This document shows positions 9,457-26,569 of a stretch of DNA of 64,000 nucleotides, piece after piece. The position numbers were made by a program, and so were the translations under genes. The notes under the pieces were generated by a model, which was not told the DNA's origin, ran no database searches, and saw only the letters and a list, made by a program, of their open reading frames with translations. Origin of the DNA: an uncultured Akkermansia sp. (GTDB lineage: Bacteria; Verrucomicrobiota; Verrucomicrobiia; Verrucomicrobiales; Akkermansiaceae); NCBI GenBank assembly GCA_949296365.1, contig CASFPZ010000016.1, positions 17,157 to 81,156 of the forward strand, in the 5' to 3' direction. Every line of letters starts with the position of its first letter. The first letter of the stretch is position 1.

Positions 9457-10806
9457 ATGCCGAATCAACAACCTCACCCCAGACCTTGGCGCCCTAACGC
9501 CGCTGCTGTGATCATCAGTACTGAAGGTAAAGTCTTGCTCGGCAAAGATCCGGGCAATAATGACTACTGGCACTTTCCTCAAGGTGGCGCAGTCAAAAAT
9601 GAACCCATTGAACATGCCCTTGCACGGGAAGTTTGGGAAGAAGTTGGTTTACGACCGGCTGACTATATGATCGCCCGCTCAATCTCTAACCTTAGATACA
9701 AATATCCGGAACACAACAGTAAAAGCAACAGATGGATCGGACAAAACCAAACCTACTTTCTTCTCGTTTGCAAAAATGATCATCCCAAAATATCTGTTGC
9801 AAGAAGTTCTGAGTTTTCAAAAGTCAAATGGTTTGATATACATGAATTGAAATTAAGCATTTTCCCCAAATTTAAGCGTTCAGTCATTCAAAAAGTGCTT
9901 TTGGAATTTTTCCCCGAGCATTCACAGTCCAGTCTCACCGAGACGTCTTGCGTTTCCACTTTACACCCTAATGTCCCTATCAACCAACAACTCCCTGTTA
10001 TGGATAGATACCTCGTACCACATGGTTCTAAGTTAAACTTCAAAAATTTTCCACCCGATGACAAAAACTTGTTTTCGGGGAACAAAGAAGAATCTCTCGT
10101 AGAATTTAACGCACTTTCCAAAGAGTTCCAAGAATTACAGCGTAAATTCTATGCTGAAAATAAACACCGCATGCTCATCATTTTTCAGGCTATGGATGCC
10201 GGGGGAAAAGATGGGTGTATTAGAAACGTTTTTTCCAATGGAGACCCACAAGGGATCCGCGTCATTCCATTCAAAAAGCCAACTCCTGATGAATTAGCTC
10301 ACGATTATCTGTGGCGTATTCACAAAGAAGTTCCTGGCAATGGCCAAATTGTTATCTTTAATCGTTCTCATTACGAAGACATCATTGCAGTTAAAGTAAA
10401 ACGCCTATTCCCTGATGAGGTTTGGAAACGCCGTTACCAATCAATTATTGATTTCGAGCGGATGCTTGCGGAAGAAGGCACAACAATTATCAAAATCTTT
10501 CTCAACATCTCGAAAGCAGAACAAAAAGCTAGGCTCGAAGGCAGACTCAATAATCCAGAAAAAATTTGGAAGTTCCAAATGGACGATCTGGATGACAGAA
10601 ATAGATGGGATGATTTTCAAAACGCATATAGAGACTTAATTGAAGCGACCTCATTTCCCCACGCGCCATGGTACATTATCCCAGCCAATCGTAAATGGTA
10701 TAGGAATCTCGTTGTCCTACGGTTGGTTGTCGAGAAACTCCGCAGTCTCAAATGTACTTACCCTCAGCCTATTTTCGATCCATCAACAATCAAAATTTCT
10801 GACTGA
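9457..10806 (+). CDS. Fusion of an RppH-like Nudix hydrolase and polyphosphate kinase 2 (class III-like)
   Basis: N-terminal WHFPQGG plus a complete Nudix box GGAVKNE-PIEHALA-REVWEEVGL; C-terminal QAMDAGGKDG, FKKPT..EL.HDYLWR, FNRSHYED, PWYIIPANRKWYRN. Confidence 0.9.
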   Translation: MPNQQPHPRPWRPNAAAVIISTEGKVLLGKDPGNNDYWHFPQGGAVKNEPIEHALAREVWEEVGLRPADYMIARSISNLRYKYPEHNSKSNRWIGQNQTYFLLVCKNDHPKISVARSSEFSKVKWFDIHELKLSIFPKFKRSVIQKVLLEFFPEHSQSSLTETSCVSTLHPNVPINQQLPVMDRYLVPHGSKLNFKNFPPDDKNLFSGNKEESLVEFNALSKEFQELQRKFYAENKHRMLIIFQAMDAGGKDGCIRNVFSNGDPQGIRVIPFKKPTPDELAHDYLWRIHKEVPGNGQIVIFNRSHYEDIIAVKVKRLFPDEVWKRRYQSIIDFERMLAEEGTTIIKIFLNISKAEQKARLEGRLNNPEKIWKFQMDDLDDRNRWDDFQNAYRDLIEATSFPHAPWYIIPANRKWYRNLVVLRLVVEKLRSLKCTYPQPIFDPSTIKISD

Positions 10807-14860: not shown

Positions 14861-14889
14861 TTGACAGAGTAAGGACTCATGTCTATTTT
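14861..14889 (+). promoter_or_regulatory. Sigma70-type promoter of the corrin operon, overlapping a hairpin
   Basis: TTGACA (14861-66), 17 bp spacer, TATTTT (14884-89), directly before the riboswitch. Confidence 0.55.
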
Positions 14890-15062
14890 TTAGGCCACCT
14901 AACGGGGAATTCCGTGAGAACCGGAAACAGTCGCGCTGCGGTATCGGGTTACGACTCTTCAACGCTGTCTTTTTTATAAGGCAGATCCAGCCAGTCTCAT
15001 TTTCGTATGGGGTGAAGGCGAAGAGAAGAAATGAAGCCCGGAGTCCGAATATCCGTCGGAGA
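14888..15062 (+). ncRNA. Cobalamin (B12) riboswitch
   Basis: AACGGGGAAT-TCCGTGAGAACCGGAAACAGTCGCGCTGCGGTA core, ...GGTGAAGGCG..., 3' GAGTCCGAATATCCGTC; immediately upstream of cbiL. Confidence 0.9.
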
Positions 15063-15083
15063 ATAACATATTAAATTCAACGC

Positions 15084-15812
15084 ATGATTGAAGATTCTTC
15101 ACAACAAGGCAACTTGGGGAAGTTTTATGGAGTTGGGATTGGCCCAGGAGACCCGACTTACTTAACCGTAAAAGCGGTCCAAGTATTCACGAATTTAGTT
15201 GATGTCATTTTTACCGTTTCGGGGCCAAAGACCGAAACCAGTGTTTCCGAATCCGTTGTAAGATCGCTTCCTTTTCGGGGGAAAATTGTTCCGCTTGTTT
15301 TTTCTATGTCTAGGAACAGTGAAGAGCGACAACTCCAGGTCGTACACAATGCCGGGATCGTTCGTGACATGCTCAAACAAGGGTTGAATTGTGCTTTTGC
15401 GACTTTAGGAGATACAATGACTTACAGTACATTTGGTTATATCCTCAAGTTTTTAAAGCAGACATTGCCCGATCTCCAAACAGAAATTATTCCAGGCATC
15501 ACCTCCTTTGCCACTTTGTCAGCGCATTCCCAGACAGTCCTCGTTGAAGATCGGGAACAATTAAGAATCATCCCTGCTTTCAAAGCCGACATGGTCGATT
15601 CCATTGAATTTCCACCATCGTCAACAACAGTGCTCATGAAGACATACAAATCACGGGACGCCTTGATCCAAAGGTTGCTTCATGAACCAGGAGTCAGCAT
15701 CGTATACGGAGAACGACTGGGAATGGAGGACGAATTCATCACCAGCGATCCTCAGGAAATTTTAAAAAGGCCAGAGACCTATTTATCCCTCATGATGGTG
15801 AAAAAGTCATGA
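15084..15812 (+). CDS. cbiL: Cobalt-precorrin-2 C20-methyltransferase
   Basis: FYGVGIGPGDPTYLTVKA, FATLGDTMTYST, IIPGITS, VLMK; first gene after the B12 riboswitch. Confidence 0.9.
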   Translation: MIEDSSQQGNLGKFYGVGIGPGDPTYLTVKAVQVFTNLVDVIFTVSGPKTETSVSESVVRSLPFRGKIVPLVFSMSRNSEERQLQVVHNAGIVRDMLKQGLNCAFATLGDTMTYSTFGYILKFLKQTLPDLQTEIIPGITSFATLSAHSQTVLVEDREQLRIIPAFKADMVDSIEFPPSSTTVLMKTYKSRDALIQRLLHEPGVSIVYGERLGMEDEFITSDPQEILKRPETYLSLMMVKKS

Positions 15813-17068
15813 ACAAGTCCAAACGTTCAAGTTTGCCACCTTGGAAGCGACCTTGGCAATGGTTTTGGTTCACACTTGCTCTCATCTCCTCGTTAATATT
15901 GATAGCAATCATGCCCGCAGGGTCCGGGACAAAGATGAAAAAAAGGCCGAGTGCGGCAACAACAGTTCAACTCACGCAACCAATTGATTCGTCTCGCAAT
16001 CAATCAGAACGACAACAGCACACAAGCTCGACAAATTCTGACAAATCGCCCAGCCCTACAGCTTCAGGGAACCGGCATCAACCAACAAAAAATGCAAGTT
16101 TCCTTCACAAACTTGTGTTGAAAGCCTCCGATATTGGGAAGTTATTTTTTATGGTTTCCATCGCGGCCTTGATTGGTAGTATTGCTGAAGCTCGTAAATA
16201 CCATTTAATTTTTGGTTTTATCTTGAAGCGGTTTTCAAAAATGATGCGCCTTCCAGTCATTGTAGGTTTAGCAATGCCGACAGCCCTTTATTCCAGCACC
16301 GCAGCCAACAGCATGCTTGTTAGTAGCCATGCCGAAGGGAAAATCGAGCATTCATCCCTCATTGCCGGAGGCATGGCCAACAGTTACTTAGCCTACGTCT
16401 CTCATTCTCTGCGAATCATGTATCCCGTCATCGGCGCAGTAGGCCTTCCAGGACTTATGTATTTTGGCGGGCAGTTTTTCCTAGGTTTTCTTTTTATTCT
16501 CGGTGTTTTGTTATGGCACAGGCGTCGTATTCTTCGCCATGCTGAACAATTAGGAGGCGATACAACAGTTTACCAGGAGGAAACACCCGATAAAATTCCT
16601 TTACCTTGGAAACAAACATTCGTCAAAGCAGGAACACGCATAGGCACACTGTTATTTCGGATGATGTTGTTAACAGTGCCACTTATGCTCTTTGTCGAAT
16701 GGTTGATGAAAAAGGGAATTTTTGAATTTTGGGAGCAACACATTCCATCGCAAGTCACCCGGATTTTCCCTTCCGAACTAGTTAGCATCGTCTTCACACA
16801 AGTGGGAGGATTAGTCCAATCGGCTTCTATAGCAGCCAATCTACGCGATTATGGAGTGATCACCAATTCTCAGATTTTGTTGGCAATGTTAGTGGGCAAT
16901 GCAGTAGGCAACCCCTTTCGAATGCTACGACGCAATCTTCCCTCTGCCTTGGGAATTTTCCCAACAAAAGAGGCACTAACAATTGTCTTTGGCATGCAAA
17001 TTTCCCGCATTATTTGTACTATTTTGTTAATCGTTATCACTGCCTTGTTTATCCACTACACACATTAA
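15809..17068 (+). CDS. Multi-pass membrane protein (Gate/nucleoside-recognition-like), candidate cobalt or corrinoid transporter
   Basis: About 8-9 hydrophobic segments in two similar halves; overlaps the cbiL stop (ATGA); sits inside the riboswitch-controlled operon. Confidence 0.6.
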   Translation: MNKSKRSSLPPWKRPWQWFWFTLALISSLILIAIMPAGSGTKMKKRPSAATTVQLTQPIDSSRNQSERQQHTSSTNSDKSPSPTASGNRHQPTKNASFLHKLVLKASDIGKLFFMVSIAALIGSIAEARKYHLIFGFILKRFSKMMRLPVIVGLAMPTALYSSTAANSMLVSSHAEGKIEHSSLIAGGMANSYLAYVSHSLRIMYPVIGAVGLPGLMYFGGQFFLGFLFILGVLLWHRRRILRHAEQLGGDTTVYQEETPDKIPLPWKQTFVKAGTRIGTLLFRMMLLTVPLMLFVEWLMKKGIFEFWEQHIPSQVTRIFPSELVSIVFTQVGGLVQSASIAANLRDYGVITNSQILLAMLVGNAVGNPFRMLRRNLPSALGIFPTKEALTIVFGMQISRIICTILLIVITALFIHYTH

Positions 17069-17077
17069 CATCCATCT

Positions 17078-17758
17078 ATGAAACCCGCTGTTGATGATCC
17101 ATATCCGACTTTGAGGTGGAGCCTCCGAGCAGATGAAATAGAAAGCGAAAGTTTTCGAACGATCGACACGGAGTGTGCAACCATTCGCCAATCGATGCCA
17201 TTACCACTCTGGCGCATTGCTAGGCGCTTGATCCACACAACAGCAGATCCTTCTATAGCCGATACTCTGCATTTCCGCAACAATCCAGTCGAATGCGGTC
17301 TAGAAGCACTCAGTCGCAAAGCCCCCCTGTTCTGCGATTCGACGATGATTCGTTCTGGCATTTCACTTTCACGGCTCCGTCAAGTTAATCCGGCTTACGA
17401 ACCCGGCGACCTTCACTGTTTTATCAAGGATCCCGACATTATTGAAAACTCAAAAGAGACCGGCCATACTCGAGCTATATGTTCTGCCGAGAAAGCCAAA
17501 CGAATCGGTATTTTAGAGGGAAGCATCGTTCTAATAGGCAATGCACCTTTAGCGCTTGCGCGCATCGCCGAATACATACTTCAAGACGGGATACGACCAT
17601 CACTAGTAATTGGCATGCCAGTTGGTTTTGTCAATGTTGTTGAATCCAAACAACTGTTAGCAAAGTGTGATGTTCCACAAATTGTTATCGATGGGCGGCG
17701 AGGGGGGAGTCCGCTTGCAGTCGCGACCTTACATGCAATCATCGAAAGCGCTCATTAA
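17078..17758 (+). CDS. cbiC: Cobalt-precorrin-8 methylmutase
   Basis: IESESFRTI, RLIHTTAD, IGNAPLAL, IGMPVGFVNVVESK, GRRGGSPLAVA. Confidence 0.95.
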   Translation: MKPAVDDPYPTLRWSLRADEIESESFRTIDTECATIRQSMPLPLWRIARRLIHTTADPSIADTLHFRNNPVECGLEALSRKAPLFCDSTMIRSGISLSRLRQVNPAYEPGDLHCFIKDPDIIENSKETGHTRAICSAEKAKRIGILEGSIVLIGNAPLALARIAEYILQDGIRPSLVIGMPVGFVNVVESKQLLAKCDVPQIVIDGRRGGSPLAVATLHAIIESAH

Positions 17759-17761
17759 TCC

Positions 17762-18898
17762 ATGCAGACTGATCGTCACCATCTTAGAACAGGGTTCTCG
17801 ACAGGTGCCTGTGTCTCTGCCGTGATTTTGGCGGCTTTTCGCTCTTACACCACACCCCAGTTTCATGAGGAACTCACTCAGACACTGCTCTTTCCTGATG
17901 GTCAGCAACGTCTATTGACGCTACTTGAGGTTCATCCTGGTTTTGCCTCAATCATTAAAGACGGAGGGGACGATCCAGACTGTACTCATGGCGCAGAAAT
18001 CTATGCTCGTCTCCGACCAGCACAGATCGATGAATTGGGGGAACATGATTATCTCGTTTCTAATCAACACTCTTGCCACGTCATCCTGCGAGCAGTCGAG
18101 GGTATAGGCCTCTGTACGCGGTTAGGACTTGACTGCGAACGCAACCACTGGGCAATCAATATCGGCCCACGCCAAATGCTCCAAGCGAATCTTCCTCAAG
18201 TTCCCGGGTGTTTTTTAGCTGAAATTGGCGTCAAACAAGGAGAAGAACTAGCCCATAAAACACTCAATCCACGCCTCGGAATCCAAGGTGGCATCTCCAT
18301 ATTAGGCACAACAGGGTTAGTCAGGCCATTCAGTAACGAAGCCTACATTGCAACCATTCGTATTTGTCTGCGTTCGATCAATCTATCCGGGGGGACTCAG
18401 GCAGTTCTATGTACAGGGGGGCGGACTCAAAAAACAGCCCAAAGCATCTTACAACACTTGCCAGAAACGGCTTTCATATGCATCGGCGATTTTATTCAAG
18501 ACAGTATCCAAGCAGCCCAACAACAGCATATTAACCACATCATACTCTCCTGCATGCCAGGCAAACTCTGTAAATACGCTGCTGGTTTTCAAAATACCCA
18601 TGCGCATAAAGTTGACCAAGCTATGCATCTTTTCTCTGAGGTTTACCATTCTCTTTTGGATCATACCCGATCCGCCCAACCTGAAATCAGTTCCCATTCA
18701 AGCATCAGACAAGCTTTAGAATATGTCGAGCCTCAACTGATTATACCACTTTACCGAGCATTTTGCAAATTAGCCTATGAGCATTTTTCAACATGGGCTC
18801 CAGGCATAACAGTTCGTTTCTTGATCTGCGATTTCGATGGGACCTTGCTACTGGATATCATTCATTCTTCTGATCCCCATCAGCCATGCCACCCTTAA
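17762..18898 (+). CDS. cbiD: Cobalt-precorrin-5B C1-methyltransferase
   Basis: LRTGFSTGACV, IKDGGDDPDCTHGA, TLNPRLGIQGGISILGTTG, IGDFI. Confidence 0.96.
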   Translation: MQTDRHHLRTGFSTGACVSAVILAAFRSYTTPQFHEELTQTLLFPDGQQRLLTLLEVHPGFASIIKDGGDDPDCTHGAEIYARLRPAQIDELGEHDYLVSNQHSCHVILRAVEGIGLCTRLGLDCERNHWAINIGPRQMLQANLPQVPGCFLAEIGVKQGEELAHKTLNPRLGIQGGISILGTTGLVRPFSNEAYIATIRICLRSINLSGGTQAVLCTGGRTQKTAQSILQHLPETAFICIGDFIQDSIQAAQQQHINHIILSCMPGKLCKYAAGFQNTHAHKVDQAMHLFSEVYHSLLDHTRSAQPEISSHSSIRQALEYVEPQLIIPLYRAFCKLAYEHFSTWAPGITVRFLICDFDGTLLLDIIHSSDPHQPCHP

Positions 18899-20115
18899 CT
18901 ATTATATCGTGTGGGATTGGACCAGCTTCTCTACCCTCACGTTCCTACCAAGAAATAGACCAAGCAGAATTCATCTTCGGTTCCCAGAAGCTTTTGGAAC
19001 AATTGGGCAATTCCACAGCCCAATGTATTCCATTAGGAGCTGATGCCCGCACAAAAGCCGCTCAAGCTCTCGATTTAGCCCAGCAAAATTGCCGAGTCGT
19101 CTTGTTAGCCTCCGGCGATGCCCTATTCCATGGTATTGGAGGAACAATTCATACACTCCTCCAGGAACGCCAACACAGCGACAACCTCGTCCAGTTTATT
19201 CCCGCAGAAACGGCTTTTCAGGCACTATTCCATAAACTGGGACTTTCTTGGGACAATGCAAGAGTCTTCAGCGCCCACAAAGACGGTCTCCATCCTTGGG
19301 GAGAAATTCTATCATCACCCCTTGCTGTTATCTATGGAGGTTTTCCATGGACAGCCGATCACTTAGCGGCCGAATGCCTACGCCGCAGTCCCGCTAGCGC
19401 CACTCGTCTTGCAGTGGCAGCAGAAGACCTCGGTACACCACAAGAACGTATTATTCAGGCCCCACTCGCTCAATTAGCTCAGGAATCTTTTAGCCCGACC
19501 TCGATCCTTCTCTTGTTACCCTCCCTCGACGCACACCACGCAGCCACTCTGCCTCTTGGTATAGACAACGAGCAATACTCTAAAGAAAATAATCTCATCA
19601 CCGACCAAGATGTTCGAGCCATTATCCTGGCCAGGTTACAGTTACCCGCTTGGGGGGTTTTATGGGATATCGGTGCAGGGAGTGGTTCCATTGGACTAGA
19701 AGCCGCCGCCCTCCGCCCCGCATTGCGAGTCTTAGGATTAGAGAAAAACCCAGCAAGGCTTGCCAATATTCTCGAAAATCGCAATCGGTTGGCAACACCC
19801 AATTACGAACTTCTCGAAGGGACAGCCCCGAACGATCTTATCAAAATGCCACAGCCAGACCGCATTTTCATCGGCGGAGGCGGACCAGCTATGGAATCAA
19901 TTTTGAGTGCCAGTCTGCATGCACTTCACCCCGGAGGGCGAATTGTCGTCTCGGCAGTAACACTAGAAAGCACCCATCTCGTTTATTCACTCTTCCCAGC
20001 CCATCGTATTGATTTTACTGAAATAACGATTGCACGAGAACGTTCCCTTGCAGGCCATTACCACAGCTTGCAAGCCGGGAACCGCATTTCTATTTTTACG
20101 TTTTCCAATCCATGA
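18886..20115 (+). CDS. cbiET: Fused C5,C15-methyltransferase/decarboxylase CbiET
   Basis: LASGDALFHGIG (CbiE) followed by ITDQDVR...LWDIGAGSGSIGLE and PDRIFIGGG (CbiT). Confidence 0.92.
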   Translation: MPPLTIISCGIGPASLPSRSYQEIDQAEFIFGSQKLLEQLGNSTAQCIPLGADARTKAAQALDLAQQNCRVVLLASGDALFHGIGGTIHTLLQERQHSDNLVQFIPAETAFQALFHKLGLSWDNARVFSAHKDGLHPWGEILSSPLAVIYGGFPWTADHLAAECLRRSPASATRLAVAAEDLGTPQERIIQAPLAQLAQESFSPTSILLLLPSLDAHHAATLPLGIDNEQYSKENNLITDQDVRAIILARLQLPAWGVLWDIGAGSGSIGLEAAALRPALRVLGLEKNPARLANILENRNRLATPNYELLEGTAPNDLIKMPQPDRIFIGGGGPAMESILSASLHALHPGGRIVVSAVTLESTHLVYSLFPAHRIDFTEITIARERSLAGHYHSLQAGNRISIFTFSNP

Positions 20116-22757
20116 ATAACCAATCTTCACCCGTCTTTTTCGTAGGAGCCGGTCCAGGAGCCGACGACCTGATCACCTTGCGCGGCGCCCACTTACTCGA
20201 GTCGGCAGATGTTGTCGTCTATGCAGGTTCGCTCGTTTCTCCAGACCAGTTAGCACGTTGTAAATCTGACTGTCAAATTCATGACAGCGCACGCCTCTCT
20301 CTCGAAGAACAGGTTGAGATTATGTATCGAAACGCTATTCTAGGGAAATTAGTCGTTCGACTCCACACAGGCGACCCCTCCATGTATGGCGCTATCGCAG
20401 AACAGATCAAAAAACTCAACGAATTGGGAATCTCGTCAGAAATTGTACCAGGAGTCAGCAGCGTCTTTGCAGCAGCAGCAGCACTCAAAACCGAATTGAC
20501 CAGCCCTGGAGGTTCCCAAAGTCTTGTTTTGACTCGTACGGCAGGACGGACCCCCATGCCATCAGGGGAAACCCCAACAGCATTTGCAAAAACAGGCGCA
20601 ACGTTAGCCTTTTTTTTAAGCATGGGAAAAATAGAATCGCTGATGGCAGAACTAATCGCTGCAGGTCTTGATCCACAAACACCCGCCGCTATTGCATATC
20701 GAGTTTCATGGCCCAACGAACTCATCATCAAAGGTACGATCGAGACTCTCGCCACACAAGCAAAAGAAGCAGGCATTGGGCGCCAAGCACTCATCCTTGT
20801 CGGTCGAGCGCTCGCAGGCAATAGCGATCATTCTCGTCTCTACGACCATAAGTTCAGTCATGGTTACCGTAACCAGTTACCCAATGAATCTTTTGTTGGC
20901 CGCTGTGCTCTCTATGCTTTCACGGACAAAGGTGTAGCCAAAGCTCTCGAAATTGCTTCGGCACTGCCTGATGCTGAAATCTACACAACGCGGCCAATTA
21001 CTACTCAACAACCAGGAGTCTACTCCATGACTTCCGCTGAGTGGAACACCCAATTTTCACGCCATTGGGGAACTTTCGACGCACATATTTTTATTGGGGC
21101 AACAGGCATTGCCGTCCGCAAAATTGCTCCATTTCTCAATGCTAAGACTCACGATCCAGCCGTGGTTTCATGTTCAGAGAATGGGCATTGGGTCATTAGC
21201 TTAAGTTCCGGCCACTTAGGGGGCGCCAACCGTCTCTGCCGAAAGATCGCACGCATTACCGGAGGACAAGCTATTATTAGTACAGCCACCGATTCTCGCA
21301 ACCTGACAGCTTTCGATGAAGCAGCTGTGATAGAAAGCGCTTTTATCGAAAACCCACAGCTCATCAAAGCGGTTAATTCGGCATTGTTAAATGGACAAGC
21401 AATTCTGTTCGACGGACCTAAAGATTATTTTGACCGTTATTGGAGCGCCTGTCCCAATGTTCGCCGCGGCACACTACCAGAAAAGCAGGTTGGTGAATTT
21501 GCCGTTGTGTGGTCTGATAGCCAACACGAGTCAATTACCCAACAAACAGATGTTTTGTTCATTTGTAGCCGATCCATTGTACTTGGAGTTGGCTGCAATC
21601 GAGATACAAGCATAGAATCACTCCGTTGTTCAGCCGAAGATTTTCTTTCACGACATAACTGGGCACCACGCCAATTGGCAGGATTGGCAACCTGTACCGT
21701 CAAAGCCGACGAGTCGGCAATCCGCCAATTAGCAGACGAATGGCAATTGCCTCTGTTGTTTTTCACTCCAGAGCAATTATCCACAATTTCCGTTCCACAT
21801 CCATCTGCCATTGTCAAAGAAAAAGTTGGGACTCCTTCCGTTAGCGAAGCATCTGCCATCCTCGCAACAGGCCAAGGGAAACTTCTTGCTAGTAAAACGC
21901 GTTACAACGATGCAACTTTTGCCGCAGCGCTTTGTCGATCTAGAGTTCAAGTTTCCGATATTTCTTTAACAAAAGATACACCTTCGCCAGTTGGACGACT
22001 TTTGGTTGTAAGTTTGGGGTCTGGATCTCCGGAACACATTACGCCACAAGCCACCGAAGCCATCGATACAAGCGACATCATTGCAGGGTACACTCACTAT
22101 GTCGATATGATTCGCGATCGGATCGGTTCAAAACCAGTCATCCAAACAGGCATGCTTGGCGAAGTATCGCGCTGCCAAGCAGCATTAGAGGCAGCAGCTT
22201 CAGGGAAAACCGTTTGCATGGTCTGCTCGGGCGATGCAGGCATCCTTGCTATGGCCGGGTTGCTTTATGAAATGCAGAATTGCAATCCCCAATTTGCCTT
22301 AGTCGATATTGTTGTCATTCCCGGTATTACTGCAGCCAGTTTAGCAGCTTCAGCCCTAGGAGCCCCTCTGCAAAATGGATATTGCCTCATTAGCCTATCA
22401 GATCTGTTAATTCCTGGGGATGAAGTACGTGACAATATCGAACATGCCGTTCACACGCATCTACCAGTCGTATTCTATAATCCAGCTGGCCGCAAACGCC
22501 GCCAGATCATGGAAGATGCAGTCAACCGGTTCCGTCAAGTTCGTGGCGATCAAACACCAGCGGCAATTGTCCGGAATGCAGGCCGTCCTACCCAGAGAAT
22601 CTGGACAGGAACTTTAAAGGATTTCCCCTTCGAACAGGTAGATATGTCCAGCCTCATTCTCATCGGAGGCAAACGCACAGTCCTGATCGATCACCTCATG
22701 TACGAAGCTCGCGGCTATGCCGACAAGTATCGAATAAACCCCACCCCGCAAGAATAA
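20112..22757 (+). CDS. cbiFGH: Triple fusion CbiF-CbiG-CbiH
   Basis: VGAGPGADDLIT...RLHTGDPSMYGA (CbiF); GATGIAVRKIAP...DPAVV...SGHLGGAN, LGVGCNR, VSEASA (CbiG); SLGSG...SGDAGILAMA...FYNP (CbiH). Confidence 0.93.
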   Translation: MNNQSSPVFFVGAGPGADDLITLRGAHLLESADVVVYAGSLVSPDQLARCKSDCQIHDSARLSLEEQVEIMYRNAILGKLVVRLHTGDPSMYGAIAEQIKKLNELGISSEIVPGVSSVFAAAAALKTELTSPGGSQSLVLTRTAGRTPMPSGETPTAFAKTGATLAFFLSMGKIESLMAELIAAGLDPQTPAAIAYRVSWPNELIIKGTIETLATQAKEAGIGRQALILVGRALAGNSDHSRLYDHKFSHGYRNQLPNESFVGRCALYAFTDKGVAKALEIASALPDAEIYTTRPITTQQPGVYSMTSAEWNTQFSRHWGTFDAHIFIGATGIAVRKIAPFLNAKTHDPAVVSCSENGHWVISLSSGHLGGANRLCRKIARITGGQAIISTATDSRNLTAFDEAAVIESAFIENPQLIKAVNSALLNGQAILFDGPKDYFDRYWSACPNVRRGTLPEKQVGEFAVVWSDSQHESITQQTDVLFICSRSIVLGVGCNRDTSIESLRCSAEDFLSRHNWAPRQLAGLATCTVKADESAIRQLADEWQLPLLFFTPEQLSTISVPHPSAIVKEKVGTPSVSEASAILATGQGKLLASKTRYNDATFAAALCRSRVQVSDISLTKDTPSPVGRLLVVSLGSGSPEHITPQATEAIDTSDIIAGYTHYVDMIRDRIGSKPVIQTGMLGEVSRCQAALEAAASGKTVCMVCSGDAGILAMAGLLYEMQNCNPQFALVDIVVIPGITAASLAASALGAPLQNGYCLISLSDLLIPGDEVRDNIEHAVHTHLPVVFYNPAGRKRRQIMEDAVNRFRQVRGDQTPAAIVRNAGRPTQRIWTGTLKDFPFEQVDMSSLILIGGKRTVLIDHLMYEARGYADKYRINPTPQE

Positions 22758-22773
22758 CGATCGTTCACCAACG

Positions 22774-24699
22774 ATGTCTGAATCCAGTCAATCCAGTCCT
22801 TTTCACGCTTGCTGCATCGCTGCTCCACGGTCTGGCGAAGGGAAAACTACGGTTACTCTCGCCCTCATGCGCGCTTTTCGCAACCGTGGGCTATTCGTTC
22901 AAGGATTCAAATGTGGACCAGATTATATCGATCCATCGTTTCACCGCCAAGCATCTGGACACGAATCCATCAATCTCGATACTTGGATGATGGGACAACA
23001 AGGAGTTATCAATACCTGGCGCCACTATATTGCTCAAGCCGATATGGCAGTATGCGAGGGAGTCATGGGTCTGTTCGATTCTCGAGAACCAGGTAATATC
23101 GAGGGAAGTACAGCAGACTGTGCGGCCACCCTCAATATTCCCGTTGTTCTCGTCGTGCAAACACGCGGCATGGCAGGTTCCATTGCAGCACTTGTAGCTG
23201 GATTTCGTAATTTTTTACCTCGTTTAAAATTAGCAGGAATCATCGCCAATGGAGTTGGCAGCGCCCGGCATGTTGACATTTTATCTCAAGCCTTGGAACG
23301 AGAAGGATTACCCCCACTTCTCGGTTCATTGCCTTTTCAAAACAAGCAATCCCTGCCAGAACGCCAGCTAGGTCTCGTCCCAGCAGAAGAATGTCAAGAA
23401 CTCGAACCCTGGTTCGAAGCCATGGGACAACTAGCTGAAGACAGATTCGACTTGAAACGCCTCTTCGAACTCAGTCAATGTCCTCGCCCCACAGATTCAT
23501 CTCCATCGCCAACGATAACACTCAGACCATGTCTCAAACGACTCGGCATTGCTCGAGACAAAGCCTTTCGCTTCTATTACGAAGAGAATCTCCGTTTTCT
23601 CAAAGCACAAGGCTGGGAACTCGTTCCTTTTTCTCCATTGGAGAATTCTGAACTACCTCAAAATCTTGATTCATTGTACATCGGCGGAGGGTACCCTGAA
23701 GAATTCGCCCCCCAACTTGCCTCCAACGTTTCCATGAGGCAGTCCATCTTTCAATTTGCTCAATCAGGCCACATGATTTACGCCGAATGCGGCGGCTACA
23801 TGTACCTAGGGAAAAACCTGATAGTTCAAGACAAGAAGTTCCCGATGTGTGGCGTTATCAATGGGACTTGCACCATGGGACAAAAGCTGCGTTCGTTAGG
23901 GTATCGCGAAGTTGAATGGCAACCCCATCGTTTTCCCTGGCGGCCCGATGTTCAACGATTGCGAGGTCATGAGTTTCATTGGTCGAATATGGAACTACAC
24001 GAGACCTTACCCCCCCTTTATTCCTACCGCGACCGCCAAGGCAATTGGCACCAAGAAGGTATATATTCCGGCAATGTCATGGCCGGTTATATTCATCTAT
24101 TTTGGGCTTGTCTTCCCGAATCCCCCGACCAATTACGGTCGCGTTACTCTGGCCGGGTTTTGTTGCTCAATGGGGCCTCCAGTTCAGGGAAGACAAGCCT
24201 CGCCTATGCCTTAAGAAACATTTGTCCCGGTCCAGTTATGGTCTTTTCAATAGATCATTTTCTACCCCTTTGCGGCAATATTAGCCAATCGGTATCCCAA
24301 GCCGTCGATCAAACCAAGCTCCCTCTCATTGAAACCTTCCATGCCAGCGTTGCTGAGGCAGCTCGCGCCGGAGTCTTCGCCATTGTCGACCATGTCATCG
24401 GAGAAAACCCCGCCTGGCTAATCGACCTAGTTTCGCGCCTTGGATCCATCCCCCTCAAAATCGTCAAAGTGACCTGCCAACAAAAGCTCCTCCTCAACCG
24501 CGAACTCTCTCGAGAAGACCGTCCAGTCAATCCAGAACATGCCCTGCGCCAGTTCCAAACAATCCACAACAACATGCACTACGACTGCGAAGTCGATACG
24601 ACTTATGCCTCACCCGAACAACTTGCCACAGAAATTTTGGACACCCTAGGTCTTGATCCAACATTCCTCCCTCAGGCCCAAAGGAATTGCCACCCATAA
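22774..24699 (+). CDS. cbiA: Cobyrinate a,c-diamide synthase fused to a C-terminal chloramphenicol-phosphotransferase-like P-loop kinase
   Basis: SGEGKTT, FKCGPDYID, EGVMGLFD, YAECGGYMYL, GHEFH (CbiA), then RVLLLNGASSSGKTS...SIDHF...YDCEVDTT (CPT-like). Confidence 0.9.
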   Translation: MSESSQSSPFHACCIAAPRSGEGKTTVTLALMRAFRNRGLFVQGFKCGPDYIDPSFHRQASGHESINLDTWMMGQQGVINTWRHYIAQADMAVCEGVMGLFDSREPGNIEGSTADCAATLNIPVVLVVQTRGMAGSIAALVAGFRNFLPRLKLAGIIANGVGSARHVDILSQALEREGLPPLLGSLPFQNKQSLPERQLGLVPAEECQELEPWFEAMGQLAEDRFDLKRLFELSQCPRPTDSSPSPTITLRPCLKRLGIARDKAFRFYYEENLRFLKAQGWELVPFSPLENSELPQNLDSLYIGGGYPEEFAPQLASNVSMRQSIFQFAQSGHMIYAECGGYMYLGKNLIVQDKKFPMCGVINGTCTMGQKLRSLGYREVEWQPHRFPWRPDVQRLRGHEFHWSNMELHETLPPLYSYRDRQGNWHQEGIYSGNVMAGYIHLFWACLPESPDQLRSRYSGRVLLLNGASSSGKTSLAYALRNICPGPVMVFSIDHFLPLCGNISQSVSQAVDQTKLPLIETFHASVAEAARAGVFAIVDHVIGENPAWLIDLVSRLGSIPLKIVKVTCQQKLLLNRELSREDRPVNPEHALRQFQTIHNNMHYDCEVDTTYASPEQLATEILDTLGLDPTFLPQAQRNCHP

Positions 24700-24712: not shown

Positions 24713-26569
24713 TCAACGATAATTGGTCTGTAACAAATAACGCTGAACTTCATCCATACTCGTTGCAAGTATCGGGAATGGAATAAAATTCGCCCCGTCG
24801 GGATTTTTTTGTTTCCAGGTATCGCCCGTCACTTGAGGGATTCGATTTCCCGACCGAATTATTTCTTTTAACCATGCCGATTGAGGCATATGGCTCGCTT
24901 CTCCTGCGGTAAAAGGCATTTGCCTTCGCCAATTTGTACCGCCAACAGTGCCAGGCGTATTCAACCGCCAATCCAAATCGAATAATTCTGTCCACATCAA
25001 CGCCGCATAATTCGATCGGCAACGCATCAAGGCTAGAAACATAGAGTTCTTGATCGTTTCGTTCCACTCACAAAGCACTGATTTATAATCAATCTGGCAA
25101 TAATCAGCAAACCAACCTAACAAACGTATGGCATCTGCGGCACGTTGTCTAATTTCCTGTTTCTCCACAGGGCACGAATCCATCAATACCCCACGCTGGA
25201 AAATACCAGCTTTTCTTGCCCGCTCAATTTGCTCATATGCCTCATTCCATGTAGTCATAATTGTCACAAAATCATGAGTACCATATGTTGCAAATGAGCA
25301 AGGATGATACATGTTACCTGGCATAATGCACCCGTTACTCTGAATTTCCCAGTGAGGGATTTTGAAGCCCGCGATGCCCAATTGCCTCATATTGGGACGC
25401 ACATAATCAGGTACGCACCCCAAATCCTCTCCCACCACGCGAATGTCCGGCGCTGCCGCTAATAACATCCGTAAATATAAATCTCCCGCCATTAAATTCT
25501 GTTTGCGATTCCAGGGCGTATCGTCCCCTCTTGGCATAAACCCTGGCAATCTTCCCCCTGTTCGAGAAGCAGCCTCTGCATAGTTCAACGGCAAAAATGC
25601 TGCATTTTCCGTAGGTTTCCAAGGGAATGCATAGATCCGGTAAAATCCTAAAATGTGATCAATCCGAGCTATAGAAAAAATTGAAGCAGTTGCAGTTAAC
25701 CTCCGGCGCCACCAAGCATACTGTTCGCGAGCCATCACATCCCACCGATACAAGGGAATACCCCAATTCTGTCCCCATTTAGCAGTAAATGGGTCTTGAG
25801 AATAAGCCCCCTCCGCCGGAGCGCCACCACACCAATTCGTGTCAAATAAATGACGTTCAAAAAATACGTCAGAACTAGCCATCGATACTCCGATAGGTAT
25901 ATCCCCCATCAAGGCGATCCCTCGATAGTCAGCATAGCGACGAACCCCTTCGTATTGCCGGAACGCAACCCACTGCAACCATTTTTCAAACTCTTTTTCT
26001 TTTGCAAATTGTCGAGCGATATCACGAGCCCGATCAGGATCCTGCTCCGGCCAATGCCACCAAACATCCGTCCCAAAGAAATCAGACAAAACCTTAAAAC
26101 ACGCAAAATCCTCTAACCATGAACCCTGTTTTGCCTTCCAATTTTCAAACTCACCTCGCAGTACCTCCAGCATGTCGTCTTCCTGGAAATTCTTCCAGCA
26201 TTTCCGAAATACCCAATATTTCAATCTCCTCACTTTGGGATAATCCACTAAATTCGCCCCAGACGGATATTGCCATCCAGGCACTCCATCCTTATCAAAC
26301 ATTACCCGTCGCTTCATACCAGGTAACGCCCACGGTTCCATCGCAATATACAACGGTTCCAACGCTATGGAACTAATCGCTGAATATGGAGACGGATTCT
26401 CGTCACTCCCCAACGCATTCACGGGTAACAACTGCAAAAAACCGACATGATGCTCAGCCGCCCAATCGATCCATTCACGCAGAGCAATTAAATCGCCTAT
26501 GCCATGGTCGTTGTCTCTTCTCATTGAAAATAGAGGAAGTAAAAGCCCTGCTAAACGCCGATTTTCCAT
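24713..26569 (-). CDS. malQ: 4-alpha-glucanotransferase (GH77)
   Basis: AGLLLPLFSMR, LQLLP, SPYSAISS, GDIPIGV, QNWGIP, RIDHILG, GEDLG, GTHD, NTPGT...NW. Confidence 0.93.
   Translation of the reverse strand: MENRRLAGLLLPLFSMRRDNDHGIGDLIALREWIDWAAEHHVGFLQLLPVNALGSDENPSPYSAISSIALEPLYIAMEPWALPGMKRRVMFDKDGVPGWQYPSGANLVDYPKVRRLKYWVFRKCWKNFQEDDMLEVLRGEFENWKAKQGSWLEDFACFKVLSDFFGTDVWWHWPEQDPDRARDIARQFAKEKEFEKWLQWVAFRQYEGVRRYADYRGIALMGDIPIGVSMASSDVFFERHLFDTNWCGGAPAEGAYSQDPFTAKWGQNWGIPLYRWDVMAREQYAWWRRRLTATASIFSIARIDHILGFYRIYAFPWKPTENAAFLPLNYAEAASRTGGRLPGFMPRGDDTPWNRKQNLMAGDLYLRMLLAAAPDIRVVGEDLGCVPDYVRPNMRQLGIAGFKIPHWEIQSNGCIMPGNMYHPCSFATYGTHDFVTIMTTWNEAYEQIERARKAGIFQRGVLMDSCPVEKQEIRQRAADAIRLLGWFADYCQIDYKSVLCEWNETIKNSMFLALMRCRSNYAALMWTELFDLDWRLNTPGTVGGTNWRRQMPFTAGEASHMPQSAWLKEIIRSGNRIPQVTGDTWKQKNPDGANFIPFPILATSMDEVQRYLLQTNYR

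Follow-up and report, generated by a model that had tools for sequence, protein, structure and literature searches.

A CbiA-Kinase Fusion at the End of a B12 Operon

The window analyzed here, a stretch of 64,000 nts from an uncultured Akkermansia sp. (contig CASFPZ010000016.1 of assembly GCA_949296365.1), carries a cobalamin (B12) biosynthesis operon. The last gene of this operon (22774..24699, + strand) joins cbiA, encoding cobyrinate a,c-diamide synthase, to a kinase domain of the chloramphenicol phosphotransferase (CPT) family, and is referred to here as cbiA::CPT. It forms one unbroken frame of 641 codons. Its translation of 641 amino acids (aa) contains every motif cited in an earlier reading of this DNA made from the letters alone (the sequence-only reading), namely GYIHLF (residues 439-444), RVLLLNGASSSGKTS, SIDHF, AIVDHVI, VKVTC...RELSREDR and YDCEVDTT.

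The CbiA/CobB part spans residues 12-444 (22807..24105, + strand) and includes both the ATP-binding domain (PF01656, residues 14-192) and the GATase_3 glutaminase domain (PF07685, residues 257-444, 132 bits). It matches the CobB equivalog NF002204 over the entire model (482.7 bits against a cut-off of 254) and TIGR00379 with 402.6 bits (cut-off 261.4), and hence belongs to the cobyrinate a,c-diamide synthases at full length. Because NF002204 is covered in full, CbiA ends at about residue 444, which is where the sequence-only reading had placed it, at GYIHLF. The linker of about 15 aa that it had described also stands: residues 445-459 (24106..24150, + strand) contain neither a methionine nor a stop and are flexible, as judged from the translation and from the predicted local distance difference test (pLDDT). 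The CPT-like P-loop kinase domain follows at residues 460-624 (24151..24645, + strand), where PF07931 matches with 95.3 bits against a cut-off of 22 and over model positions 1-170 of 172, so that the CPT (PF07931-like) pattern named earlier is recovered by profile over a nearly complete model.

An AlphaFold2 model built from 17 homologues (mean pLDDT 84.7) shows two well-folded parts, with pLDDT mostly 85-96 in the CbiA part and mostly 80-95 in the kinase domain, joined by a linker in which residues 450-458 are the sole internal stretch below 50. Homologues differ in the sequence and length of this linker, and Bilophila-type proteins have insertions in it that reach ~90 aa. Foldseek relates the N-terminal part of the model to CTP-synthase, dethiobiotin-synthetase and GATase folds. 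Judged from profile and predicted structure, two independently folded enzymes share one chain: the N-terminal 444 residues are predicted to be an ordinary CbiA and the C-terminal ~180 residues a P-loop small-molecule kinase of the CPT fold. In databases, the protein is annotated plainly as 'cobyrinate a,c-diamide synthase'.

The operon, entirely on the + strand, runs from a cobalamin riboswitch through cbiL, a gene for a 419-aa protein, cbiC, cbiD, cbiET and cbiFGH to cbiA::CPT. The riboswitch aptamer upstream of it (14875..15074; Rfam RF00174, 44.1 bits against a gathering threshold of 31.5, full model 1-189) bears out the B12 regulation that had been proposed for the kinase gene. It is followed by cbiL (15084..15812), encoding the precorrin-2/cobalt-factor II C20-methyltransferase (TIGR01467, 167.3 bits against a cut-off of 163). 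The 419-aa gene (15809..17068) overlaps the end of cbiL by 4 bp and has neither a Pfam nor an NCBIfam match. In tblastn comparisons, its product is 45-58% identical to proteins at the same operon position in seven related loci (L022, L023, L028, L031, L033, L039 and L040), this position being conserved in Akkermansia and Desulfovibrionaceae, and in a study of Akkermansia it was described as a hypothetical protein resembling a putative cobalt transporter (PMC6974653). Next come cbiC, for precorrin-8X methylmutase (17078..17758; NF006136 and NF004620, E ~1e-43), cbiD (17762..18898; TIGR00312, 265 bits against a cut-off of 200) and the cbiET fusion (18886..20115; TIGR02467 for CbiE at residues 12-208, TIGR02469 for CbiT at residues 238-359). 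The gene directly before cbiA::CPT (20112..22757) is a triple fusion of cbiF, cbiG and cbiH encoding 881 aa (TIGR01465 at residues 8-253, CbiG NF004466 at residues 264-604, TIGR01466 at residues 630-870), and these three are fused in all related operons. Downstream, the convergent malQ ends at 24713, 13 bp from cbiA::CPT. Elsewhere in the window, a gene at 9457-10806 fuses a NUDIX hydrolase domain (PF00293) to a PPK2 polyphosphate kinase domain (PF03976).

The Kinase Domain and Its Relation to Chloramphenicol Phosphotransferase

The kinase domain belongs to PF07931, since its P-loop, catalytic aspartate and lid arginines align to CPT and its fold is that of CPT according to Foldseek. In contrast, it is not a chloramphenicol 3-O-phosphotransferase proper, as it reaches 61.1 bits against the cut-off of 250 of the equivalog NF033114. 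The likeness to the CPT of Streptomyces venezuelae is nevertheless extensive. Profile comparison matches 1QHX/1GRQ with an E value of 1.8e-23, and Foldseek aligns 1QHS with a template modeling (TM) score of 0.78 (target-normalized) and a root-mean-square deviation of 3.2 A over 189 columns at 26% identity. In addition to the P-loop, the two share the pairs D37/D494, D92/D539, R133/R580 and R136/R583 (CPT/fusion protein).

An invariant catalytic set is formed by the P-loop G467-x4-G472-K473, D494 (CPT D37), D539 (CPT D92) and the lid residues R576, E577, R580, D582 and R583. Unlike CPT, the B12-associated kinases characteristically carry G543, R555, an inserted H589 and R592 on the substrate side, each present in at least 93% of the members of their clade and at most 12% of the domains outside it. 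The extra basic residues R555, H589 and R592 would fit a small anionic substrate, which is only suggestive. A further difference from CPT is that the B12 kinases lie inside cobamide operons or are fused to cobamide enzymes, and not in an antibiotic cluster.

A quick maximum-likelihood tree of 163 CPT-family domains, supported by the Shimodaira-Hasegawa approximate likelihood ratio test (SH-aLRT) only, places the CbiA-, CobD- and CbiP-fused domains and the standalone domains of Akkermansia in one clade (SH-aLRT 98, stem length 0.43), with CobA-fused domains as its sister group (SH-aLRT 86). The S. venezuelae CPT (1QHX) groups with P0019 and P0166 (SH-aLRT 99), far from the B12 clade. Read from its residues and relatives, the domain is predicted to be a CPT-fold enzyme that is competent for catalysis and devoted to the cobamide pathway.

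Distribution of the Fusion and of Other Kinase Fusions

A search with the kinase part that retained full-length proteins returned 17 clusters with the CbiA, GATase and CPT architecture, one of which comprises 1196 sequences and is a Bilophila wadsworthia 'cobyrinate a,c-diamide synthase', and a second search returned more than 60. Named genomes that contain the fusion belong to Akkermansia, Bilophila, Mailhella and Desulfovibrio. The sequence-only reading had left room for a fusion confined to one assembly; because it is conserved in many lineages, of both Akkermansia and gut Desulfovibrionaceae, a stop-loss or other assembly or sequencing error was rejected.

Proteins closely related to the kinase (41-55% identity) are confined, in GTDB species genomes, to Akkermansia/Verrucomicrobiales and to gut Desulfovibrionaceae (Bilophila, Mailhella, Desulfovibrio spp. 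and a 'Lawsonia' metagenome-assembled genome), two further matches being probably mis-binned contigs. Ten of 151 sampled Desulfovibrionaceae carry the kinase, each time fused. In B. wadsworthia ATCC 49260, the cbi operon occurs twice, in diverged form (L034 and L040), each time with its own cbiA::CPT gene, and identity between the two kinase domains is 72%. The gene following the kinase in L034 matches the CobD part only.

When 1.84 billion representatives were searched exhaustively with HMMER and the matches scanned for domains, CbiA proved not to be the only partner. The kinase is fused to CobD in P0039 (597 aa; TIGR01140, 250 bits), whose gene precedes cobT-cobS, to CbiP in P0060 and to CobA in P0050, P0237 and P0238. 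Fifteen contigs carry P0237, whose operon comprises btuFCD-like genes, cbiA, CPT::cobA, cobS, cbiB and cobD::cbiP. A third operon type of this order, with a btuFCD-like transporter and a standalone cbiA, is seen in L112-L114, which probably come from a Verrucomicrobia- or Lentisphaerae-like organism. An apparent CbiA-CPT-CobD fusion (P0234) was discounted, its contig being rich in frameshifts with many split genes.

Several loci appear to be ring operons decayed to in-frame remnants that retain an intact kinase domain. For example, in P0023 (L020) a cobalamin riboswitch lies directly upstream, with a 76-aa open reading frame, and a C-terminal remnant of CbiA is joined to CPT. Similarly, P0022 (L018) consists of a CbiF-like remnant and CPT adjoining cobA, and P0031 of a CbiC fragment and CPT. 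In L029/P0187, a truncated and frameshifted CbiA accompanies an intact CPT upstream of cobD::cbiP-cobT-cobS.

Gene Order and Co-Occurrence with the Late Cobamide Module

Related loci were compared by tblastn with the cobamide proteins of the window's own genome. The usual order, common to Akkermansia and Desulfovibrionaceae, is cbiL, a membrane gene, cbiC, cbiD, cbiET, cbiFGH, cbiA::CPT, cobD::cbiP, cbiB, cobT, cobS, a cbiR-like gene and cobU, and cobD::cbiP directly follows cbiA::CPT in 17 of the 23 related loci. The genome of the window holds a split version of this cbiL-to-cobU arrangement.

Co-occurrence was followed in 101 Akkermansia species genomes, with one common draw for each search. 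The kinase is present in 15 of them; cbiB is present in the same 15 and in G235, which is 83% complete, and cbiA in eight, each time fused. The seven Akkermansia genomes that have cbiB but lack cbiA encode the kinase as a standalone gene. Four of these (G054, G178, G284 and G269) have it at the head of an operon continuing with cobD::cbiP, cbiB, cobT, cobS, cbiR and cobU, with gaps of 5-30 bp; at L102, the stop of the kinase gene overlaps the start of cobD::cbiP, and in G269 the kinase appears disrupted. Directly upstream of this operon in G054, a 305-aa open reading frame (L102:5371-6288) reads in translation as a probable transposase of the insertion sequence type. The riboswitches near the standalone operons of L104 and L105 lie on the opposite strand and were rejected as controls of the kinase.

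Separate encoding of the kinase in relatives, which the sequence-only reading had counted against a role in the pathway, thus turned out both ways: standalone genes do exist, but inside cob operons they stand directly before cobD::cbiP. This position strengthens the link to the pathway and indicates that the domain does not serve CbiA itself. The presence of the kinase is independent of CbiA and tied to the late module, most tightly, by position and fusion, to CobD/CbiP.

Late Cobamide Genes Elsewhere in the Genome and the Missing Threonine Kinase

The genome (2.67 Mb, 46.9% G+C, completeness 99.6%) encodes the late steps on other contigs. Contig C4 carries cobT, cobS, a CbiR-like gene and cobU, contig C53 a HAD hydrolase gene, a cobD::cbiP fusion and cbiB, and contig C1 encodes CobA (PF02572, 166 bits) and a PduO-type adenosyltransferase (145 bits). 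The absence of cbiP, cbiB, cobU and pduX noted from the sequence alone therefore holds for the window, but for the genome it holds for pduX alone. A replacement of cobU, cbiP or cbiB by the domain was rejected accordingly, all three being present. The canonical cobU (C4:86684-87217; 158.6 bits) is the genome's only match to PF02283, a family that the kinase domain does not match, and its presence makes the earlier suggestion of a substitute for the cobinamide kinase step unnecessary.

The CobD::CbiP protein has 867 aa. Its CobD part (281 bits to TIGR01140, model positions 1-330) is encoded at C53:9803-10837 and a full cobQ match at C53:10913-12358, about 25 codons apart. Archaeal CobD of Methanosarcina is a bifunctional kinase/decarboxylase. 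There is no sign of such a CobD here, as the CobD and cobQ matches fill the protein and leave no room for another domain. The HAD-family hydrolase gene overlaps the start of cobD::cbiP, which cbiB follows (C53:9069-13365, outside the window); it may encode a pathway phosphatase substituting for CobC. A HAD gene also adjoins the CPT::CobD gene in L110. The gene at C4:85810-86670, between cobS and cobU, is, judged from its position, presumably a cobamide-remodeling gene of the CbiR type as in A. muciniphila, and tblastn finds its homologues at the same position in Desulfovibrionaceae operons.

A new corrinoid adenosyltransferase was also considered, CobA being likewise a P-loop protein that acts on the product of CbiA. 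The argument from need was rejected, since CobA and a PduO-type enzyme are both encoded, and the idea is further disfavored by the lineage in which the domain is fused to a complete CobA and hence replaces nothing.

The characterized L-threonine kinases PduX, BluE and DabA are all GHMP kinases (PMC10906522). A GHMP-type L-threonine kinase (pduX) was not found in the genome, in which GalK and IspE are the sole GHMP kinases. With the known GHMP threonine kinases absent and cobD present, the genome has a consumer of L-threonine phosphate without a known producer. Four Desulfovibrionaceae carriers have one GHMP kinase each, and no GHMP-type threonine kinase was found in the carriers examined. The sequence-only reading had asked whether carriers lack cobU or pduX; cobU lies in the same operons of the relatives.

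A Putative L-Threonine Kinase and Its Alternatives

The domain is probably a P-loop L-threonine kinase supplying L-threonine-O-3-phosphate to CobD, a substrate suggested by its context and by the gap in the pathway. This is the most likely function because the conversion of L-threonine to L-threonine-O-3-phosphate is the sole kinase step left unassigned in the late module and the carriers examined have no GHMP-type threonine kinase. Of the activities offered by the sequence-only reading, threonine phosphorylation fits best, given in addition the adjacency and fusion to CobD in relatives and the co-occurrence with cbiB. In the proposed mechanism, the kinase would work with the aminopropanol-phosphate arm module (CobD, CbiP and CbiB) and not with CbiA, catalyzing ATP + L-threonine -> L-threonine-O-3-phosphate for decarboxylation by CobD, and would thereby fill the step of the GHMP kinases PduX/BluE in other bacteria. 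When the operon was split in the genome of the window, the kinase would have stayed on cbiA under the B12 riboswitch, with cobD::cbiP-cbiB moving to another locus. With slightly less assurance, the balance tips toward a structurally new, CPT-fold class of L-threonine kinase that would serve the cobamide arm of Akkermansia and gut Desulfovibrionaceae and, as a mobile domain, is found attached to CbiA, CobD, CbiP or CobA.

Several observations weigh against a threonine kinase feeding CobD. In three of the seven genomes with cbiB and without cbiA (G125, G251 and G274) and in G141, at loci L106-L109, the kinase gene lies apart from cob genes; at L025 and L026 (the same as L109 and L106), its neighbors are GNAT, redoxin and tRNA genes, and no riboswitch was found at any of these loci. 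The phyletic pattern cannot single out CobD because in Akkermansia the kinase is accompanied by all of the late operon (cobD, cbiP, cbiB, cobT, cobS, cbiR and cobU), and the CPT::CobD fusion was seen on a single metagenomic contig. Furthermore, a pduX annotation is absent from most experimentally verified cobamide producers (Shelton et al., PMC6461909), hence its absence alone is weak evidence. Finally, 141 of the 151 sampled Desulfovibrionaceae are without the kinase, which implies another source of threonine phosphate in this family and possibly here too.

The domain could instead be an adenosylcobinamide kinase for salvage (cobinamide to cobinamide phosphate), acting beside CobU or replacing its kinase half, although this is unlikely. 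The cobinamide hydroxyl sits in an N-acylated amino-alcohol and is chemically like the C3-OH of chloramphenicol that CPT phosphorylates, which together with the constant presence of late and salvage genes in carrier genomes speaks for such a substrate. Like CobU/CobP, the domain is a small P-loop kinase of the late cobamide pathway, but it lacks sequence similarity to them, and a normal, separate CobU is encoded in the genome and in the same operons of relatives. The domain is, moreover, placed at or fused to CobD, CbiP or CobA and never CobU, and its added basic residues suit, if weakly, a small anionic substrate over a large corrinoid. A little less probable still is another precursor of the arm, either (R)-1-amino-2-propanol, giving aminopropanol phosphate, or L-serine for an ethanolamine-phosphate arm as in norcobamides. 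The same context evidence applies as for threonine, and sequence cannot tell the substrate; against aminopropanol, however, a CobD-type decarboxylase is encoded beside the kinase and would be needless if aminopropanol were phosphorylated directly. Cobamides of the (pseudo)cobalamin type carry an aminopropanol linker. Akkermansia is reported to make, or remodel to, this type (PMC7733943, PMC6974653), which speaks against this alternative.

The CbiR-like gene in the same late operons would be in keeping with a CblS-like kinase for the lower-ligand riboside (alpha-ribazole or alpha-adenosine), recycling it after CbiR-type remodeling. This is improbable, as CobT is present and yields the phosphorylated riboside directly, the CPT::cobA operon (L112-L114) clusters without cbiR or cobT, and the domain lies at the cobD/cbiP end of the operon rather than at the cobT/cobS/cbiR end. 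Least credible by far is a true phosphotransferase for chloramphenicol or another antibiotic, or a non-catalytic ATP-binding appendage of CbiA acquired by chance fusion. The family's best-characterized kinase confers chloramphenicol resistance on S. venezuelae, which produces the antibiotic, but the low score against the CPT equivalog, the well-separated clade and the B12 riboswitch favor a pathway kinase over a resistance enzyme, as the sequence-only reading had supposed. The invariance of the catalytic residues also disfavors an appendage, and chance is hard to reconcile with a domain joined to four different cobamide enzymes and standing alone in cob operons that lack cbiA.

In cobamide biosynthesis, the step of the L-threonine kinase is a recognized gap. 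Should the assignment to L-threonine be correct, the pathway would gain a new enzyme family in the form of a P-loop analogue, which would explain one case of 'missing pduX' in verified cobamide producers. It would also improve the genome-based prediction of B12 production and salvage in Akkermansia and Bilophila/Desulfovibrio, gut groups that are studied medically, and could explain why non-producing Akkermansia retain the kinase with cobDQ-cbiB, and hence which corrinoid precursors they can use. A compact kinase would in addition be available for engineered B12 pathways. Salmonella pduX mutants are already available, and together with an uncomplicated kinase assay they make the hypothesis readily testable.

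Comparison with Known Systems

The operon itself has been published. Kirmiz et al. 2020 (PMC6974653) described a cbiK/X-cbiL-cbiC-cbiD-cbiET-cbiFGH-cbiA cluster in Akkermansia AmII strains and in A. glycaniphila, which is the same operon in gene order and genus. However, its last gene was given simply as cbiA, and in the main text of that study 'pduX' and 'kinase' are absent and 'threonine' occurs only as a medium supplement. In A. glycaniphila Pyt, the loci L024 and L031 both carry the cbiA::CPT fusion. The literature searched, in which few subscription journals were covered, contains no description of a CPT-like kinase linked to cobamide synthesis or of a cbiA::CPT fusion, in agreement with the sequence-only reading.

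Precedents for joining a corrin amidase to an enzyme of the arm are the bifunctional CobB-CobC (NCBIfam NF053748) and CobD::CbiP ('CobDQ'), although in them the partner is a pyridoxal phosphate-dependent decarboxylase rather than, as here, a kinase. In reaction and pathway role, the proposal matches PduX of Salmonella enterica, BluE of Rhodobacter and DabA, which feed the CobD decarboxylase, and bluE likewise works with cobC and cobD (PMC6249242). In contrast to the domain described here, which is a P-loop kinase, these three are GHMP kinases with motifs I-IV (PMC10906522), and no GHMP family is found among the Pfam/NCBIfam matches of the fusion protein. Its P-loop CPT fold and the lack of a GHMP match therefore make the domain a possible functional analogue of PduX, BluE and DabA rather than a member of their family.

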